IMG/VR virus record: IMGVR_UViG_2541047854_000005
Direction: 5' to 3' (one strand)
DNA length: 22,088 bases
Origin: a virus
Taxonomy: Duplodnaviria > Heunggongvirae > Uroviricota > Caudoviricetes
Under the pieces are notes generated by a model. That model worked only from the letters and a program-made list of their open reading frames with translations. It was not told the origin of the DNA and did not search any database. A program made the translations under genes and the position numbers. Of the stretch, positions 9,520 through 18,478 are shown piece after piece. Position 1 is the first letter of the stretch, and each line of letters starts with the position of its first letter.

Positions 9520-10044
9520 TTATTGTTTAACCCATAATAATTCATTGACATTGAATCCCAACTTTTGAGCGGTTCGCACATAGTCTGCTTTTACTTTATC
9601 TGGAATAGTTGGGGTCCTTGCCAGAATCCATAGGTATTCTCTGTTCGGACCACTGACAAGAGCATACTTATACTCATCATCCAGTTTGATTACATTATAG
9701 CCACCATAGAAGGGGCCAAAAAACGAAACCTTCAATGCTGCAGTTTTAGTATCTCCAGTAAAGTATGCTTTACCTTCGCTCTCGCTCCATTTATTTTTCG
9801 TTGGATCGTATCCACGGTTAAGTACACGAATCCCTCCGTCGTTCCGTTTTCCATAAGTAGCGCTGACCTGTTCCAGACCACGTTCGAACCGGTTCTCGAG
9901 GCGAGCTATTTCATACCATTTTCCGAGGTAGCGGTTGGCGTCAAAATTTGTAATCGGCTGCACACCTTTAGGTGGTGTCGGGGCCTTACATGCTATAAGA
10001 GTGAAAGAGAGTGCAATGCCAGTCAACACAGGCCATAACTTCAT
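9520..10044 (-). CDS. Blc-like bacterial lipocalin, outer-membrane lipoprotein (174 aa)
   Basis: Lipobox LIAC in the signal peptide; KAYFTG...AALKVSFFGPFYGGYNVI...YLWILARTP matches recalled Blc motifs; opposite strand to the late transcript. Confidence 0.8.
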   Translation of the reverse strand: MKLWPVLTGIALSFTLIACKAPTPPKGVQPITNFDANRYLGKWYEIARLENRFERGLEQVSATYGKRNDGGIRVLNRGYDPTKNKWSESEGKAYFTGDTKTAALKVSFFGPFYGGYNVIKLDDEYKYALVSGPNREYLWILARTPTIPDKVKADYVRTAQKLGFNVNELLWVKQ

Positions 10045-10236
10045 AATAAATCCTGTACTTTTGATAGTTGAGAGTAAGTATGAAAGATAGATGATTACGA
10101 CCGATCACTTAAAGAACTTTCATACTATATTAGGAATAGTCCATAACAGAAAAATTGTCAGTGATGACGCCAGAAAGGCAATTTATTCCGTGCACTACAC
10201 AGTTTATGTGTTAATGAATTAGTCAAGGGGGAGAAT

Positions 10237-11196
10237 ATGATAAAAAAACCTGTGATTGGAATCAGCGGTTGTTTGGCCGGTTCTGCTGTTCGTTTTGATG
10301 GTGGTCACAAAAGAGCTGACTTTTTAATGGACAAATTAGTGGAATGGGTAACATTCAGACCAGTATGTCCGGAAATGGCTATAGGGCTGCCAGTTCCGCG
10401 TCCTGCTCTACGTCTTGTGCGCTCGACGCAAGGAAATATACGGATGTGTTTCAGCCACGACCAGAATGAGGATGTGACAGAGAGAATGACAGAGTTTAGT
10501 CGTTCTTATATGGACAAATTAAAGGATGTATCGGGGTTTGTGGTTTGTGCTAAATCTCCCAGCTGTGGCATGGAGCGCGTGCGTGTCTATGATGAAAATG
10601 GTAATCGAGGTCGTAAAGATGGAGTGGGACTATTTACGAGCACTTTGATGGAAAAGTTTTCCTGGCTACCGGTTGAAGAGGATGGGCGATTACATGATCC
10701 AGTGCTTCGTGAGAATTTTGTTGAAAGAGTTTTTGCTTTGCATGAGCTCAATCACCTTTACAAGGAGAAATTATCAAGAAGAGAGTTATTAGCTTTTCAT
10801 AGTCGTTATAAGCTTCAGTTGTTGGCGCATAGTCAGGCAGGCTATAAAGATATGGGACCATTTGTGGCTGCAATACACGAGTGGGCGGACCTTGAATCAT
10901 ACTTTGAGGTGTATCGTGATAAGCTGATGGCGATTCTCAGAAAACCTGCATCACGTAAAAATCACACGAATGTGCTGATGCATATACAGGGGTATTTTAG
11001 TAACTACTTAAGTACACGCCAGCGTAAAGAGTTGAGCGAGGTTATACTTAACTATCGTTCTGGCACATTACCTCTTCTTGCGCCGTTGACTCTGCTGAAG
11101 CATTATCTGGGTGAGTATCCTAATGATTACTTGCTTACACAGAATTACTTCGATTCCTATCCGGACGAACTGGCTCTAAGACTGATGGTAAATTAA
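10237..11196 (+). CDS. DUF523 (TudS-like 2-thiouracil desulfurase) fused to DUF1722 (YbgA-like), 319 aa
   Basis: GGGGAG ribosome-binding site; N-terminus KPVIGISGCLAG...RPVCPE...CAKSPSCGMERV has the Cys pattern of DUF523; the C-terminal half resembles YbgA. Domain calls are from memory. Confidence 0.6.
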   Translation: MIKKPVIGISGCLAGSAVRFDGGHKRADFLMDKLVEWVTFRPVCPEMAIGLPVPRPALRLVRSTQGNIRMCFSHDQNEDVTERMTEFSRSYMDKLKDVSGFVVCAKSPSCGMERVRVYDENGNRGRKDGVGLFTSTLMEKFSWLPVEEDGRLHDPVLRENFVERVFALHELNHLYKEKLSRRELLAFHSRYKLQLLAHSQAGYKDMGPFVAAIHEWADLESYFEVYRDKLMAILRKPASRKNHTNVLMHIQGYFSNYLSTRQRKELSEVILNYRSGTLPLLAPLTLLKHYLGEYPNDYLLTQNYFDSYPDELALRLMVN

Positions 11197-11547
11197 TTGT
11201 ATGCGATATCATCCAAAAGGATGAGTTCCTGCATGCAGGATATTTACAATCGTAAAAACTACACTATGATACCCAGAGTGTCAGTTTGTATAAAAACTCT
11301 GTTTACGCTGAAGAAACAATTGAGATGCAACTTAAAGTTGGTAAACATGCCAGTCAAAATATATAATATTATGATTCCACGCAGCTATATATAATATAAC
11401 GGATTGGTTTAATAATTTGTCTTTGTGAGTTAAATACATAATTTTATACTTGTGATGCAATGAAATTTTCCTTATTGTTGAACTGGCGAATATTGATTTT
11501 CCACCTATACTTACCTGGTGTAACCCCAATGATATCAGGTGGATAAT

Positions 11548-12279
11548 ATGCCATACATATGTTCTATCATTTTGGTGTTGAACTCGTTTGATGTCCGAAT
11601 TGGTAAAGAAGATATTTTGTTTAAAAAAGGAAGTGCTGTTCTCATTGATTACAATTTAAAAGATTTTTTTTCATCAAATATAGATCATGTAATGATCGTA
11701 GATGTTGAAGAGAAAACAGTTAATGATTTCTTTAAAAGCAACACACTCTCACCTTTTTCTGTAAGAAGGTTTTATCCGGCATACTTGATGGTGGAATGTG
11801 AAGATTTTTCATTGTTAAAGAACTTGATTGCATGCTTGAATTGTGATGGCAGAACTGTGGATTTTGTTAGAAATCAAATATCACTTGCATGTCTTGCTAT
11901 CTTATCTTCAGAGAAAATAGTGCAAAGTTTTTTATTTGGATGTCTTAATAGTTTAGGAAGTAAAGTTAAGGCTATTATTCACACGGATATATCTGCAGCA
12001 TGGAGACTTTGTGATATATCTTCAAGACTGTATCTGAGTGAAAGTCTGTTAAAAAGAAAATTAAAGCACGAAGGCTTATCATTTAGTAAGTTAATTCTTG
12101 AAGAGCGAATGGTGATGGCGGAAAGCTTATTAAGCTACAATTTATATTCTGTTGGAAAAGTTGCTGAGATATGCGGTTATGAAAACACGTCATATTTTGT
12201 AAGTGTTTTCAGAAGGTATTTTGGTGTTCCTCCCCATCAATATTCATCAAGATTTTTTTTAGAAAAAGACATGATGTAA
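11548..12279 (+). CDS. AraC/XylS-family transcriptional regulator (243 aa from the ATG at 11548)
   Basis: C-terminal AraC HTH (ICGYENTSYFVSVFRRYFGVPPHQY); AGGTGGA ribosome-binding site before the ATG; markedly AT-rich gene. Confidence 0.8.
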   Translation: MPYICSIILVLNSFDVRIGKEDILFKKGSAVLIDYNLKDFFSSNIDHVMIVDVEEKTVNDFFKSNTLSPFSVRRFYPAYLMVECEDFSLLKNLIACLNCDGRTVDFVRNQISLACLAILSSEKIVQSFLFGCLNSLGSKVKAIIHTDISAAWRLCDISSRLYLSESLLKRKLKHEGLSFSKLILEERMVMAESLLSYNLYSVGKVAEICGYENTSYFVSVFRRYFGVPPHQYSSRFFLEKDMM

Positions 12280-13179: not shown

Positions 13180-13643
13180 GCAGGGTAACCGCGATTATCT
13201 CCGCTCTGGTTATCTGCATCATCGTCTGCCTGTCATGGGCTGTTAATCATTACCGTGATAATGCAATCGCCTACAAAGAACAGCGCGATAACAAGGCCAG
13301 TGAACTGGAGAAGGCGAACGCCACCATTACTGACATGCAGCAGCGCCAGCGTGATGCTGATGCACTCGATGATAAATACACGAAGGAGTTAGCTGATGCG
13401 AAAGCTGAAAATGATGCTCTTCGGCGCAAGCTTGATAATGGTGGTCGGGTGCTCGTCAAAGGAAAATGCCCTGTGCCATCCTCAGCCGAAACCTCCAGCG
13501 CCTCCGGCATGGGCAATGATGCCACCGTCGAACTCTCTCCAGTTGCTGGACGAAACGTTCTCGGTATCCGGGACGGAATTATCCGCGACCAAACAGCACT
13601 GAGAACGCTTCAGGAATACATCAGGACGCAATGCCTTCGATGA
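13176..13643 (+). CDS. rzpD: Rz i-spanin (155 aa from the ATG at 13176)
   Basis: [30 protein letters not shown]... with N-terminal transmembrane segment and coiled-coil region; ATGA overlap with the endolysin stop. Confidence 0.85.
13396..13602 (+). CDS. rzoD: Rz1 o-spanin lipoprotein, embedded in Rz in the +1 frame (68 aa)
   Basis: GAAGGAG ribosome-binding site; lipobox VVGC; proline-rich [16 protein letters not shown]. Confidence 0.8.
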
Positions 13644-13817
13644 TAGCGATAATTTTACTCATCATCCTTCACATCTGGCTCTGTAGACAGGGTGGTGCTC
13701 ACTTCTGGAGTGAATCCAGATTAAACATCTCATTGCTGATGCTTGATATTGAGCATTTTGCGCGCGGTAAGGGGCTGCGTTGAGATAAGAGCCAGTCATT
13801 ACAAATACCAGGATTTA

Positions 13818-13840
13818 GCCTCGCATTCGCGGGGCTTTTT
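13818..13840 (+). terminator. Rho-independent terminator after the lysis cassette
   Basis: gcctcgc-attc-gcggggc hairpin (one G-U pair) followed by five T; a second perfect 9-bp inverted repeat (aaagccact...agtggcttt) lies at 13853-13878. Confidence 0.5.
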
Positions 13841-14134
13841 ATTGCCATTACAAAAGCCACTTCCTACAGAGTGGCTTTGATAATGGCTTATACCCTACAC
13901 GGGATAACTTAACTGATATCCCTTTTAAAGGATAAAGGTATTCAAGCCTGACACATCATGCGCTGTATCGTCGCCGTATTCCCGTATTAACAGAGACCGT
14001 AGCCCGACGGGGAACTCCTTCTGCGCGAGTGTGTGGGAATAATCAAAAACGATGCACACCGGGGTTACCGGGTACACATATTTCATCATGCCAGCGAGTC
14101 CGGTTCTGGCACGGAAGAAACCGGACGTTATGAT

Positions 14135-14545
14135 TTAGTGCGGAAATATTTGTGTAGTGTTCTGAATGTTCTCAGTAAAGAGTAATGAATTATCAAAGGT
14201 ATAGTAATACCTTTTGTTTTCGTGGATATTTGTAATCCATCTGAAAACCCCTGCTGTAGCAAGATTTTTCCTGTATTCGTAAAATGATAACTCTCCTGAT
14301 TTGAATCCTTTTAAGGTGGCTTCTATAAGGCATTTATTTTTTGAAAATCTTACATTTACAACCTTACCCTGTCCTTTTATTAAAACCGTATTATCGTTTT
14401 CAAGAACAAGATGAATATTCTCTGTGGCTAAATAGTAAATGTAATGTGAGACATTGTGACGTTTTAGTTCAGAATAAAACCAGTGATAGTTTAAATTATT
14501 TCGCACTTTATCGAATATTTGTTTAAAAATGGCAACCTGAGCCAT
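14135..14545 (-). CDS. ybcV: YbcV-like DUF1398 protein (136 aa from the second ATG)
   Basis: [30 protein letters not shown]... matches the recalled lambda right-end orf / DLP12 YbcV; GGAAGG ribosome-binding site before the ATG at 14545. Confidence 0.8.
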
Positions 14546-14601
14546 TGTAGTACCTTCCATGTGATATGAGGGGTGTAGTCTGCACGATTATCTAAATTGC
14601 T

Positions 14602-14835
14602 TCAATCTGGTCTGATCTGTTTTCTGAGCAATTCAGTAATGTCACTCTTTTCTTTGTTTGCTTCAGGAGAAACTCTTTTTTCTGAGCACAGTCTCCGGCG
14701 GCAGGCTTCAATGACCCAGGCTGAGAAATTCCCGGACCCTTTTTGATCAAGAGCGATGTTAATTTGTTCAATCATTTGGTTAGGAAAGCGGATGTTGCGG
14801 GTTGTTGTTCTGCGGGTTCTGTTCTTCGTTGACAT
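14602..14835 (-). CDS. Small basic ribbon-helix-helix-like protein of the lambda right end (77 aa)
   Basis: MSTKNRTRRTTTRNIRFPNQMIEQINIALDQKGSGNFSAWVIEACRRRL; conserved position between the ybcV-like gene and cos. Confidence 0.6.
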   Translation of the reverse strand: MSTKNRTRRTTTRNIRFPNQMIEQINIALDQKGSGNFSAWVIEACRRRLCSEKRVSPEANKEKSDITELLRKQIRPD

Positions 14836-15034
14836 GAGGTTGTCCCGTATTCAGTGTCGCTGATTTGTATTGTCTGAAGTTGTTTTTACGTTAAGTTGAT
14901 GCAGATCAATTAATATGATACCTGCGTCATAATTGATTATTTGACGTGGTTTGATGGCGTAGATGCACGTTGTGACATGCAGATGATAATTATTATCATT
15001 TTGCGGGTCCTTTCCGGCGATCCGACAGGTTACG

Positions 15035-15046
15035 GGGCGGCGACCT
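15035..15046 (+). other. cosN cohesive-end site (GGGCGGCGACCT), with cosB/Nu1-binding region to about 15223
   Basis: Exact lambda 12-nt cohesive-end sequence, followed by sequence matching recalled lambda cosB up to the Nu1 start. Confidence 0.85.
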
Positions 15047-15223
15047 CGCGGGTTTTCGCTATTTATGAAAATTTTCCGGTTTAAGGCGTTTCCGTTCTTC
15101 TTCGTCATAACTTAATGTTTTTATTTAAAATACCCTCTGAAAAGAAAGGAAACGACAGGTGCTGAAAGCGAGCTTTTTGGCCTCTGTCGTTTCCTTTCTC
15201 TGTTTTTGTCCGTGGAATGAACA

Positions 15224-15769
15224 ATGGAAGTCAACAAAAAGCAGCTGGCTGACATTTTCGGTGCGAGTATCCGTACCATTCAGAACTGGCAGGAACAGGG
15301 AATGCCCGTTCTGCGAGGCGGTGGCAAGGGTAATGAGGTGCTTTATGACTCTGCCGCCGTCATAAAATGGTATGCCGAAAGGGATGCTGAAATTGAGAAC
15401 GAAAAGCTGCGCCGGGAGGTTGAAGAACTGCGGCAGGCCAGCGAGGCAGATCTCCAGCCAGGAACTATTGAGTACGAACGCCATCGACTTACGCGTGCGC
15501 AGGCCGACGCACAGGAACTGAAGAATGCCAGAGACTCCGCTGAAGTGGTGGAAACCGCATTCTGTACTTTCGTGTTGTCGCGGATCGCAGGTGAAATTGC
15601 CAGTATTCTCGACGGGCTCCCCCTGTCGGTGCAGCGGCGTTTTCCGGAACTGGAAAACCGACATGTTGATTTCCTGAAACGGGATATCATCAAAGCCATG
15701 AACAAAGCAGCCGCGCTGGATGAACTGATACCGGGGTTGCTGAGTGAATATATCGAACAGTCAGGTTAA
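15224..15769 (+). CDS. nohD: Terminase small subunit Nu1 (181 aa)
   Basis: MEVNKKQLADIFGASIRTIQNWQEQGMPVLRGGGKGNEVLYD... matches recalled lambda Nu1. Confidence 0.95.
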   Translation: MEVNKKQLADIFGASIRTIQNWQEQGMPVLRGGGKGNEVLYDSAAVIKWYAERDAEIENEKLRREVEELRQASEADLQPGTIEYERHRLTRAQADAQELKNARDSAEVVETAFCTFVLSRIAGEIASILDGLPLSVQRRFPELENRHVDFLKRDIIKAMNKAAALDELIPGLLSEYIEQSG

Positions 15770-18197
15770 CAGGCTGCGGCATTTTGTCCGCGCCGGGCTT
15801 CGCTCACTGTTCAGGCCGGAGCCACAGACCGCCGTTGAATGGGCGGATGCTAATTACTATCTCCCGAAAGAATCCGCATACCAGGAAGGGCGCTGGGAAA
15901 CACTGCCCTTTCAGCGGGCCATCATGAATGCGATGGGCAGCGACTACATCCGTGAGGTGAATGTGGTGAAGTCTGCCCGTGTCGGTTATTCCAAAATGCT
16001 GCTGGGTGTTTATGCCTACTTTATAGAGCATAAGCAGCGCAACACCCTTATCTGGTTGCCGACGGATGGTGATGCCGAGAACTTTATGAAAACCCACGTT
16101 GAGCCGACTATTCGTGATATTCCGTCGCTGCTGGCGCTGGCCCCGTGGTATGGCAAAAAGCACCGGGATAACACGCTCACCATGAAGCGTTTCACTAATG
16201 GGCGTGGCTTCTGGTGCCTGGGCGGTAAAGCGGCAAAAAACTACCGTGAAAAGTCGGTGGATGTGGCGGGTTATGATGAACTTGCTGCTTTTGATGATGA
16301 TATTGAACAGGAAGGCTCTCCGACGTTCCTGGGTGACAAGCGTATTGAAGGCTCGGTCTGGCCAAAGTCCATCCGTGGCTCCACGCCAAAAGTGAGAGGC
16401 ACCTGTCAGATTGAGCGTGCAGCCAGTGAATCCCCGCATTTTATGCGTTTTCATGTTGCCTGCCCGCACTGCGGGGAGGAGCAGTATCTTAAATTTGGCG
16501 ACAAAGAGACGCCGTTTGGCCTCAAATGGACGCCGGATGACCCCTCCAGCGTGTTTTATCTCTGCGAGCATAATGCCTGCGTCATCCGCCAGCAGGAGCT
16601 GGACTTTACTGATGCCCGTTATATCTGCGAAAAGACCGGGATCTGGACCCGTGATGGCATTCTCTGGTTTTCGTCATCCGGTGAAGAGATTGAGCCACCT
16701 GACAGTGTGACCTTTCACATCTGGACAGCGTACAGCCCGTTCACCACCTGGGTGCAGATTGTCAAAGACTGGATGAAAACGAAAGGGGATACGGGAAAAC
16801 GTAAAACCTTCGTAAACACCACGCTCGGTGAGACGTGGGAGGCGAAAATTGGCGAACGTCCGGATGCTGAAGTGATGGCAGAGCGGAAAGAGCATTATTC
16901 AGCGCCCGTTCCTGACCGTGTGGCTTACCTGACCGCCGGTATCGACTCCCAGCTGGACCGCTACGAAATGCGCGTATGGGGATGGGGGCCGGGTGAGGAA
17001 AGCTGGCTGATTGACCGGCAGATTATTATGGGCCGCCACGACGATGAACAGACGCTGCTGCGTGTGGATGAGGCCATCAATAAAACCTATACCCGCCGGA
17101 ATGGTGCAGAAATGTCGATATCCCGTATCTGCTGGGATACTGGCGGGATTGACCCGACCATTGTGTATGAACGCTCGAAAAAACATGGGCTGTTCCGGGT
17201 GATCCCCATTAAAGGTGCATCCGTCTACGGAAAGCCGGTGGCCAGCATGCCACGTAAGCGAAACAAAAACGGGGTTTACCTTACCGAAATCGGTACGGAT
17301 ACCGCGAAAGAGCAGATTTATAACCGCTTCACACTGACGCCGGAAGGGGATGAACCGCTTCCCGGTGCCGTTCACTTCCCGAATAACCCGGATATCCGGT
17401 TTGATAAATATGACGGTAGCGCAACAACTTTTCTTGGTGATGCGTATATTGATACACAAACGCTTGAAATTAATATGACAGGCGGCGCTGCCTCAAGGAT
17501 TACAGCGAGAGTCAGAAAGGACGAAGCTACCGGATGGATTTTTGCAGAGGCAACAATTCAGGCAATTGATGGGGAGTTAAAAATAGGTTCTCAGATACAG
17601 TATTCTCCTAAGCAGGGCGGGGCAACCGTATCTGGTGACTATATTTATCTGGCCACCCCACAAGTAGAAAATGGGCCTTGTGTATCATCTTTTATTATAT
17701 CAGGAACGACGGCGGCGACCCGCGCAAGCGATATAGTTACAGTTCCCATTAAGAATAATCTTTATAATCTTCCTTTTACGGTTCTTTGTGAGGTACATAA
17801 GAACTGGTATAAAACGCCAAATGCAGCGCCGCGTGTTTTTGACACCGGCGGTCATCAAACCGGAGCGGCAATTATTCTTGGATTCGGTTCTTCAGCAGAT
17901 TACGACGGATTTCCTTATTGCGATATTGGAGGAGCTAACAGACGGGTAAACGAAAACGCATTGCTTGAAAAAATGGTTATGGGGATGCGTGTAAAGTCAG
18001 ATCAGTCTACGTGCTCAGTAAGTAACGGGCGTATATCCAGCCAAACAAAAACCACATGGTCCTGTATTCAGAACACCGCAATTATCCGTATTGGAGGCCA
18101 GACTACAGCCGGGTTACGTCATTTATTTGGTCATGTCAGGAATTTCAGAATATGGCACAAGGCATTGACTGATGCTCAGGTGGGGGAGTCAATCTAA
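15744..18197 (+). pseudogene. aaaD: Terminase large subunit A fragment (codons 1 to about 551) fused in frame to a tail-fibre-like C-terminal segment (817-aa chimeric ORF)
   Basis: Residues 1-551 match recalled lambda gpA (MNISNSQVNRLRHF...GAVHFPNNPDI); from about nt 17396 the sequence diverges into a lectin-like tail-fibre-type C-terminus (...FRIWHKALTDAQVGESI); the A nuclease/ATPase C-terminus and all head/tail genes are missing. Confidence 0.85.
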
Positions 18198-18478
18198 TGA
18201 AAGATTTAACACTCAAATTTGCCGACAGGGCCGACTTTTCGGCCTTTATGGAGAGTACTGGCTATTATGATGACGAGTCGATGCAGGATGATATTCTTAT
18301 TGACGTGATAGGTAACGTGTACAAAGAAACCGGAGAACTGAATGAAGATGGCGAACCGGTATGTGTTAAGGAAGACGGATATTTTGTAAACGTGCGCATC
18401 ATTAATGATGTGAAAACACCGTCAATATTCGATGAATACGTGGTTGCTGTTGAGCATCAACTTCGTGGCTGGATGTGA
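18197..18478 (+). CDS. Hypothetical acidic protein (93 aa) between the fusion ORF and the tail fibre
   Basis: Start overlaps the upstream stop (TAATG); no motif recognised. Confidence 0.45.
   Translation: MKDLTLKFADRADFSAFMESTGYYDDESMQDDILIDVIGNVYKETGELNEDGEPVCVKEDGYFVNVRIINDVKTPSIFDEYVVAVEHQLRGWM

Follow-up and report, generated by a model that had tools for sequence, protein, structure and literature searches.

An in-frame terminase–tail-fibre chimera as the probable scar of an 18.9-kb deletion in a lambdoid prophage of Escherichia coli

How does a gene that begins as the large terminase subunit of phage lambda come to end as a tail fibre? The question is raised by an open reading frame (ORF) in the IMG/VR virus record IMGVR_UViG_2541047854_000005 (Caudoviricetes), a stretch of 22,088 nt that is referred to as a whole as the window. 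An earlier note, made from the letters of the window alone, had read this ORF as terminase gene A fused in frame to a lectin-like tail-fibre C-terminus, with everything between terminase and tail fibre absent. Comparison with phage lambda and with an intact prophage at the same chromosomal site bears this out. The chimeric ORF is very probably, as judged from its sequence, the scar of one illegitimate-recombination event that deleted ∼ 18.9 kb from a lambda/DLP12-type prophage.

The first 551 residues of the chimera are identical to lambda gpA (551/551 in a direct comparison with NC_001416; lambda gpA has 641 residues), and the front 86% of the packaging-enzyme gene is kept. In a megablast search of phage records the window follows lambda at 99.8% identity from position 15000, and the match stops exactly at 17395 (lambda nt 2362). 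The earlier note had set the breakpoint after ...FPNNPDI, at about nt 17395, which proves to be exact. Beyond residue 551 lambda gpA continues with FDLTEAQQ..., the window with RFDKYDGS...; the ORF does not encode a full-length terminase. Residues 552–817 correspond instead to residues 525–790 of a 790-aa fibre of E. coli 19KM1831 (265/266 identical, with one substitution, C for Y) and match the tail protein family PHROG 1419; they are not a terminase C-terminus. At the DNA level, the window is 99.9% identical from 17393 onwards to the 3′ third of 19KM1831 stf and the genes after it (Table 1). The two parents have a TAT microhomology in common at the joint, inside the interval (17390–17400) in which one had been sought. 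The window reads ...AACCCGGATAT followed by CCGGTTTGAT... (as a continuous sequence ...AACCCGGATATCCGGTTTGAT), the A parent ...AACCCGGATAT/TTTTGATC and the stf parent ...GGTTGCGTAT/CCGGTTTGAT. The first unique base is a third codon position in both parent genes. Since both are thus in codon phase 2 at the joint, the native frame of the fibre is kept to its own stop codon (18195–18197), which overlaps the next ATG as it does in the intact prophage. The junction peptide of the predicted chimera is FPNNPDIRFDK (...HFPNNPDIRFDK...).

Table 1. Features of the remnant prophage, in window coordinates.
Feature	Position	Strand	Evidence or remark
Second deletion scar, ∼ 6.7 kb	5563–5568		BLAST map of the window against 19KM1831 and its annotation
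cosQ core GGGTCCT, conserved heptamer	15005–15011	+	lambda 48473–48479; alignment to the lambda right end
cosN and cosB (lambda nt 1–190)	15035–15223	+	window 15035 = lambda nt 1
nu1 (nohD-type), terminase small subunit, intact	15224–15769	+	Pfam Phage_Nu1 1–164/164, E 2.5e-100
Chimeric ORF gpA(1–551)::Stf-like(525–790)	15744–18197	+	817 aa, GTG start; single ORF in the ORF list
A′ segment: ATPase domain complete, nuclease domain truncated	15744–17395	+	Pfam
Perfect 12-bp palindrome, contains GATATC and two CCGG	17388–17399		created by the joint
Microhomology TAT, 3 bp	17393–17395		common to both parents; alignment of window, intact A and intact stf (19KM1831)
′stf segment: C-terminal half of spike-fibre domain and whole predicted ConA-like/LamG-like terminal domain	17396–18197	+	PHROG, NCBIfam, fold search
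93-aa gene after stf	18197–18478	+	PHROG 1361, E 4.5e-45
346-aa tail-fibre protein, C-terminal S74 intramolecular-chaperone domain	18488–19528	+	Peptidase_S74 E 8e-14; PHROG 4563 1–346/346
102-aa ORF (97–99 aa in other calls), last prophage gene before KAP NTPase	19556–19864	+	PHROG 1443, E 7e-58

Both parental sequences are present in E. coli 19KM1831 (NZ_CP151026.1, 873–918 kb), which carries a complete ∼ 46-kb lambdoid prophage in the same place on the chromosome (espL1/yniD on one side, KAP NTPase/thrS on the other) and is 98–99.9% identical to the window on both sides of the joint. Unlike the window, it has a full-length A, all morphogenetic genes, lom, a stf encoding 790 aa and an immunity/replication/red region. 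Relative to this prophage the window lacks 18,861 bp. According to the 19KM1831 annotation, the deleted DNA runs from the final 274 nt of A to the initial 1,571 nt of stf (about two thirds of that gene) and takes in the head–tail joining, portal, S49 protease, decoration, major capsid and FI/FII-type genes, the whole set of tail genes as far as J, and lom. Everything from W to lom is gone, in line with the absence of the morphogenetic region noticed previously. After stf the gene order is common to the two: the 93-aa gene, the 346-aa S74 fibre, a small ORF, the KAP-type NTPase and thrS.

We propose that the deletion joined A codon 551 to stf codon 524/525 at the TAT microhomology, in frame by chance. 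Lost in such an event would be the end of A, the front two thirds of stf and, between them, W, B, C/Nu3, D, E, FI, FII, Z, U, V, G, T, H, M, L, K, I, J and lom. We infer the mechanism from the joint. Homologous recombination between mosaic modules was rejected, only 3 bp being common there. The TAT fits illegitimate recombination or replication slippage without being strong evidence for either; among 300,000 joints simulated on the intact prophage, microhomology of at least 3 bp occurred in about 5.5% of random junctions.

On the terminase side, the elements upstream of A are preserved, as the earlier note had stated for cos and Nu1. Nu1 is identical to lambda Nu1 (181/181 aa), and cosQ (the heptamer, which we take to be cosQ), cosN and cosB are all lambda-like. 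The window from 15035 to 17395 differs from NC_001416 by three substitutions in 2,361 nt, all silent, plus one 1-nt indel. The cosN/cosB region lacks one nucleotide, lambda nt 138 in cosB, and is otherwise identical to NC_001416; several other lambda records appear to have this shorter length (they align over 1–2361, not 1–2362). The cos–nu1–A′ block (15004–17395) is 99.9% identical to 19KM1831; the adjoining late segments are only 83–98% identical to K-12 or 19KM1831.

The cut falls inside the nuclease domain of gpA. Pfam recognizes only two gpA domains in the chimera, both within the first 551 residues. GpA_ATPase (PF05876; residues 47–285, profile positions 3–237/247) has the same span as in lambda gpA and is complete. 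GpA_nuclease (PF20454) covers residues 322–551 (profile 2–239/294) compared with residues 322–600 (profile 2–286) in lambda and is incomplete. The last 90 residues of gpA (552–641) are absent, including profile positions 240–286 and the C-terminal tail (∼ 610–641). The part that is lost contains residues that lambda gpA needs for cos cleavage, and its extreme C-terminus docks the terminase on the prohead portal; the N-terminus, which is kept, is where the literature places the Nu1-binding part.

The downstream partner is a side-tail-fibre type protein. Its parent in 19KM1831 is annotated as a 790-aa ‘prophage tail fiber N-terminal domain-containing protein’ and lies after J and lom, the position of Stf; residues 1–131 of it form the PF08400 N-terminal domain. 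The retained piece (266 aa) matches PHROG 1419, ‘tail protein’, over positions 525–793/793 (E 2.8e-127). Position, N-terminus and family match agree with the tail-fibre assignment made at the outset. The chimera lacks PF08400 and has the C-terminal distal region of the family. The NCBIfam model GTA_spike_fiber matches residues 434–634 of the intact fibre (profile 1–181/182, 52 bits, above cutoff); only its second half remains in the chimera (profile 93–181/182, 30–32 bits, below cutoff). A search of Protein Data Bank (PDB) sequences with the C-terminus gave only one marginal match, the RcGTA head spike fibre Rcc01080 (PDB 6TB9, E 0.008), a weak sequence similarity that accompanies the GTA_spike_fiber match.

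The terminal domain was examined at the level of fold. Pfam Laminin_G_3 (PF13385) matches the last 50 residues at E 0.0035 with 17.9 bits, below the gathering cutoff of 27.6; homologues at 38–52% identity carry precomputed PF13385 matches and are named LamG-domain proteins. An AlphaFold2 model of the C-terminus, calculated from a 37-sequence alignment (mean predicted local distance difference test score 75.7), is nearly all β-strand with two disordered loops. Nearly all of the 50 matches listed by Foldseek against the PDB are pentraxin, PAPP-A, clostridial neurotoxin receptor-binding and trans-sialidase entries (E 1e-5 to 1e-4, with modest TM-scores of about 0.4–0.57), entries that we take to be ConA-like jelly rolls. 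The jelly-roll β-sandwich spans the terminal ∼ 155 aa of the model, with pentraxins, the PAPP-A LamG module and neurotoxin Hc-N as the best PDB matches. The model thus gives fair support to a ConA-like (LamG/pentraxin-type) terminal domain. ‘Lectin-like’, the term used in the earlier note, is apt for this predicted fold and refers to fold, not to ligand binding; the Pfam score by itself is sub-threshold.

The comparison with the aaaD-type fusion of the K-12 prophage DLP12, also suggested there, holds in kind. A literature search returned nothing on aaaD in DLP12 and, for tfaD with nohD, only an unrelated RNA-chaperone screen; the comparison was therefore made directly on NC_000913.3. There the aaaD pseudogene (gpA 1–103) reads in frame into tfaD (the C-terminus of Tfa), with nohD upstream. 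The RefSeq coding sequence of K-12 TfaD starts at gpA Met61 (positions 17355–18098 of our locus L013, MG1655), which means that the K-12 ‘tail fiber assembly protein’ is itself a gpA(61–103)::Tfa chimera. DLP12 and the window are alike in having a lambda-type cos, a Nu1 homologue and a truncated A that continues in frame as a tail-fibre-region gene, with the head and tail genes deleted, and they have the upstream late region (ybcN–ninE–ybcO–rusA–ylcG–Q, essD–rrrD–rzpD, ybcV, ylcI) in common at 83–98% identity. They differ in the joint. Between K-12 and the window, homology is lost after 16051 (A codon 103), whereas the window stays in A until 17395; DLP12 joins gpA codon 103 to the C-terminus of Tfa, the window codon 551 to Stf residue 525. 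DLP12 has lost stf wholly, while the window keeps its 3′ end and three further genes of the tail-fibre region, and DLP12 is integrated at argU, the window in the espL1/thrS region. Since breakpoints, partners and integration sites are all different, the K-12 and window fusions are independent events. The terminase::tail-fibre scar is thus of a kind already known from K-12 and not a novel type; it is an ordinary scar of prophage decay with a well-known precedent.

Searches with the C-terminal piece brought up other deletions of this sort, and their common right-hand gene is therefore an ascertainment effect; a protein search detects in-frame joints only, which biases the set of chimeras towards them. 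In GCA_048600225.1 (locus L014, 6001–7104; protein P0033) the joint lies between portal codon ∼ 184 and the same fibre module; 2 bp are common to the two sides, and 18,092 bp were lost. Protein P0088 is a ParB_N::LamG-type fibre end, and P0035 is an internal in-frame deletion of the fibre with its left breakpoint in the stf N-terminus. At the same chromosomal site as in the window, the same prophage has decayed independently in E. coli 2452 (locus L009, 14555–15008) through two deletions with 4-bp microhomologies, from the lysis region (rrrD/rzpD) to mid-stf. These resemble the window: each is a large loss from a lambdoid prophage, its right end falls within a stf-like gene and, where the joints were aligned, there is 2–4-bp microhomology. 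They differ from it in their left breakpoints (portal, ParB-like gene, stf N-terminus, rrrD/rzpD region).

A joint between two unrelated genes could also be produced by assembly or scaffolding, two unrelated contigs being joined into a junction that exists in no cell. Consistent with this, none of 5,426 complete E. coli genomes has a place that covers the 400-bp junction query, and the 38-mer across the joint, TTCCCGAATAACCCGGATATCCGGTTTGATAAATATGA, is found in no GTDB species representative. Against it, seven samples (six NCBI drafts and one Logan assembly, SRR4067478) each have a contig that encodes exactly this 817-aa protein, always in the same gene context, and one IMG/VR contig carries the junction as well. 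The carrier DNA is 99.98–100% identical to the window over flanks of up to 16 kb, GCA_000459675.1 being a perfect match, and NCBI assigns one copy of the protein to E. coli KOEGE 40 (102a). Identical copies across independently made assemblies establish that the fusion is not an artefact, an explanation that is refuted in practice; the fusion is real, arose recently and is limited to a few near-identical genomes. A deletion directed by the local sequence is the other explanation to be weighed against random joining. The joint creates a perfect palindrome, CCGGATATCCGG, because the two retained flanks, AACCCGGATA in A and TATCCGGTTT in stf, are near-perfect inverted copies of each other, and this inverted 7–10-bp match could have guided a nuclease, a recombinase or a secondary-structure event. 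A palindrome of this length arose in only 0.28% of the simulated joints, and together with microhomology of at least 3 bp in 0.017%; simple microhomology joining does not predict one, which weighs against the origin that we favour. Nevertheless, the palindrome was noticed post hoc, each parental site on its own lacks one, and no E. coli mechanism is known to us by which the DNA between two inverted arms would be lost and the arms kept. The independent joints described above show 2–4-bp microhomologies; their alignments, read by eye and without palindrome scoring, show no evident palindrome. By our reasoning the parental sequences do not fit a cohesive-end model around CCGG, and an origin of the palindrome from a restriction cut with cohesive ends was rejected, as GATATC occurs in neither parent and the implied overhangs are not complementary. 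We consider a sequence-directed deletion very improbable and regard the palindrome as an unexplained, post hoc curiosity.

Illegitimate recombination as the origin of the joint leaves the question whether its product does anything. Both partners are cut inside domains, GpA_nuclease (2–239/294) and GTA_spike_fiber (93–181/182), so the product is most likely non-functional, a product of decay as far as its sequence can tell. If made, the chimera would keep the Nu1-binding N-terminus and the ATPase but lose the nuclease end and the prohead-binding tail; it would carry half a spike-fibre domain and the lectin-like domain, without a domain for tail attachment. We would expect it to be unable to act either as a terminase or as a tail fibre. 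Several observations pull the other way. Every carrier has the same uninterrupted frame of 817 codons, when the prior for in-frame joining is only 1 in 3, and an expressed product with some activity is conceivable from the sequence. All copies are at least 99.98% identical, so that selection is unreadable in either direction. The chimera might have been exapted: made together with the intact Nu1, it could poison the terminase of superinfecting lambda-cos phages in a dominant-negative manner, or it could put the lectin-like domain to a new use. Genes of cryptic prophages are sometimes domesticated; Nu1 and gpA 1–551 are 100% identical to lambda and lie in a late operon downstream of an intact Q; and the predicted ConA-like domain appears to be kept whole. 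However, the chimera matches no PADLOC defence model, cuts within domains of both partners favour misfolding, the fusion is limited to a handful of near-identical genomes and to none of the complete ones, and the end points of other deletions in this prophage type bear no relation to those seen here, as random decay predicts. We consider exaptation very improbable. An equally small chance attaches to a remnant that is not inert, in which cos, Nu1 and the truncated gpA would act on co-resident lambda-cos phages, infecting or induced. They might do so by poisoning the terminase of these phages (dominant-negative exclusion), or a helper terminase might begin packaging at the chromosomal cos and draw in the DNA to its right, in the direction of thrS–infC–pheST. 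A dominant-negative fragment, helper use of the chromosomal cos and a meaning of the palindromic joint are, all three, unsupported speculation.

A probably non-functional decay product of this kind has little biological weight. It is nevertheless a clean, fully reconstructed case of lambdoid prophage decay, in which both parents, the joint and the size of the deletion are known. It also bears on annotation. The 817-aa product appears at NCBI under the names ‘large terminase’ and ‘phage terminase large subunit family protein’, both of which hide the tail-fibre origin of the last 266 residues. Such chimeras can mislead surveys of domain architecture, and programs that call prophage completeness would count a terminase here.

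Three points go beyond the earlier note: the cuts within domains of both partners, the palindrome at the joint, and a second deletion elsewhere in the element. This second deletion took part of exo, bet, gam, a kil-like gene, the repressor, a cro-like gene, a YdaT-domain gene, O and part of P. With immunity, replication and red functions lost, the element is a multiply deleted cryptic prophage. It would have no capacity to replicate, build particles or package itself, despite its lambda-identical cos/Nu1.

The segments 5568–5834 and 5834–6540 are divergent or foreign and hold a 164-aa ORF with a weak match to VasI. Between Q and the holin, window 9520–12279 is a cargo block with a lipocalin (− strand), a DUF523/DUF1722 protein of the YbgA family and an AraC-type regulator; it sits where DLP12 of K-12 has nmpC. 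Window 13420–15004 (ybcV, ylcI-like) stands in place of the iss/bor-type region of 19KM1831. Next to the integrase, the type III effector gene espL1 (727–2155, − strand) is apparently split into ORFs of 314 and 157 aa; it is frameshifted by annotation in strain 2452 and intact in 19KM1831. At the other end, a KAP-type P-loop NTPase of 580 aa (20346–22088, − strand) lies in an island of 31–33% GC between the end of the prophage and thrS. Among the candidate defence families of PADLOC it has a match to PDC-S49 (E 7e-16), and it also stands beside the intact prophage in 19KM1831.

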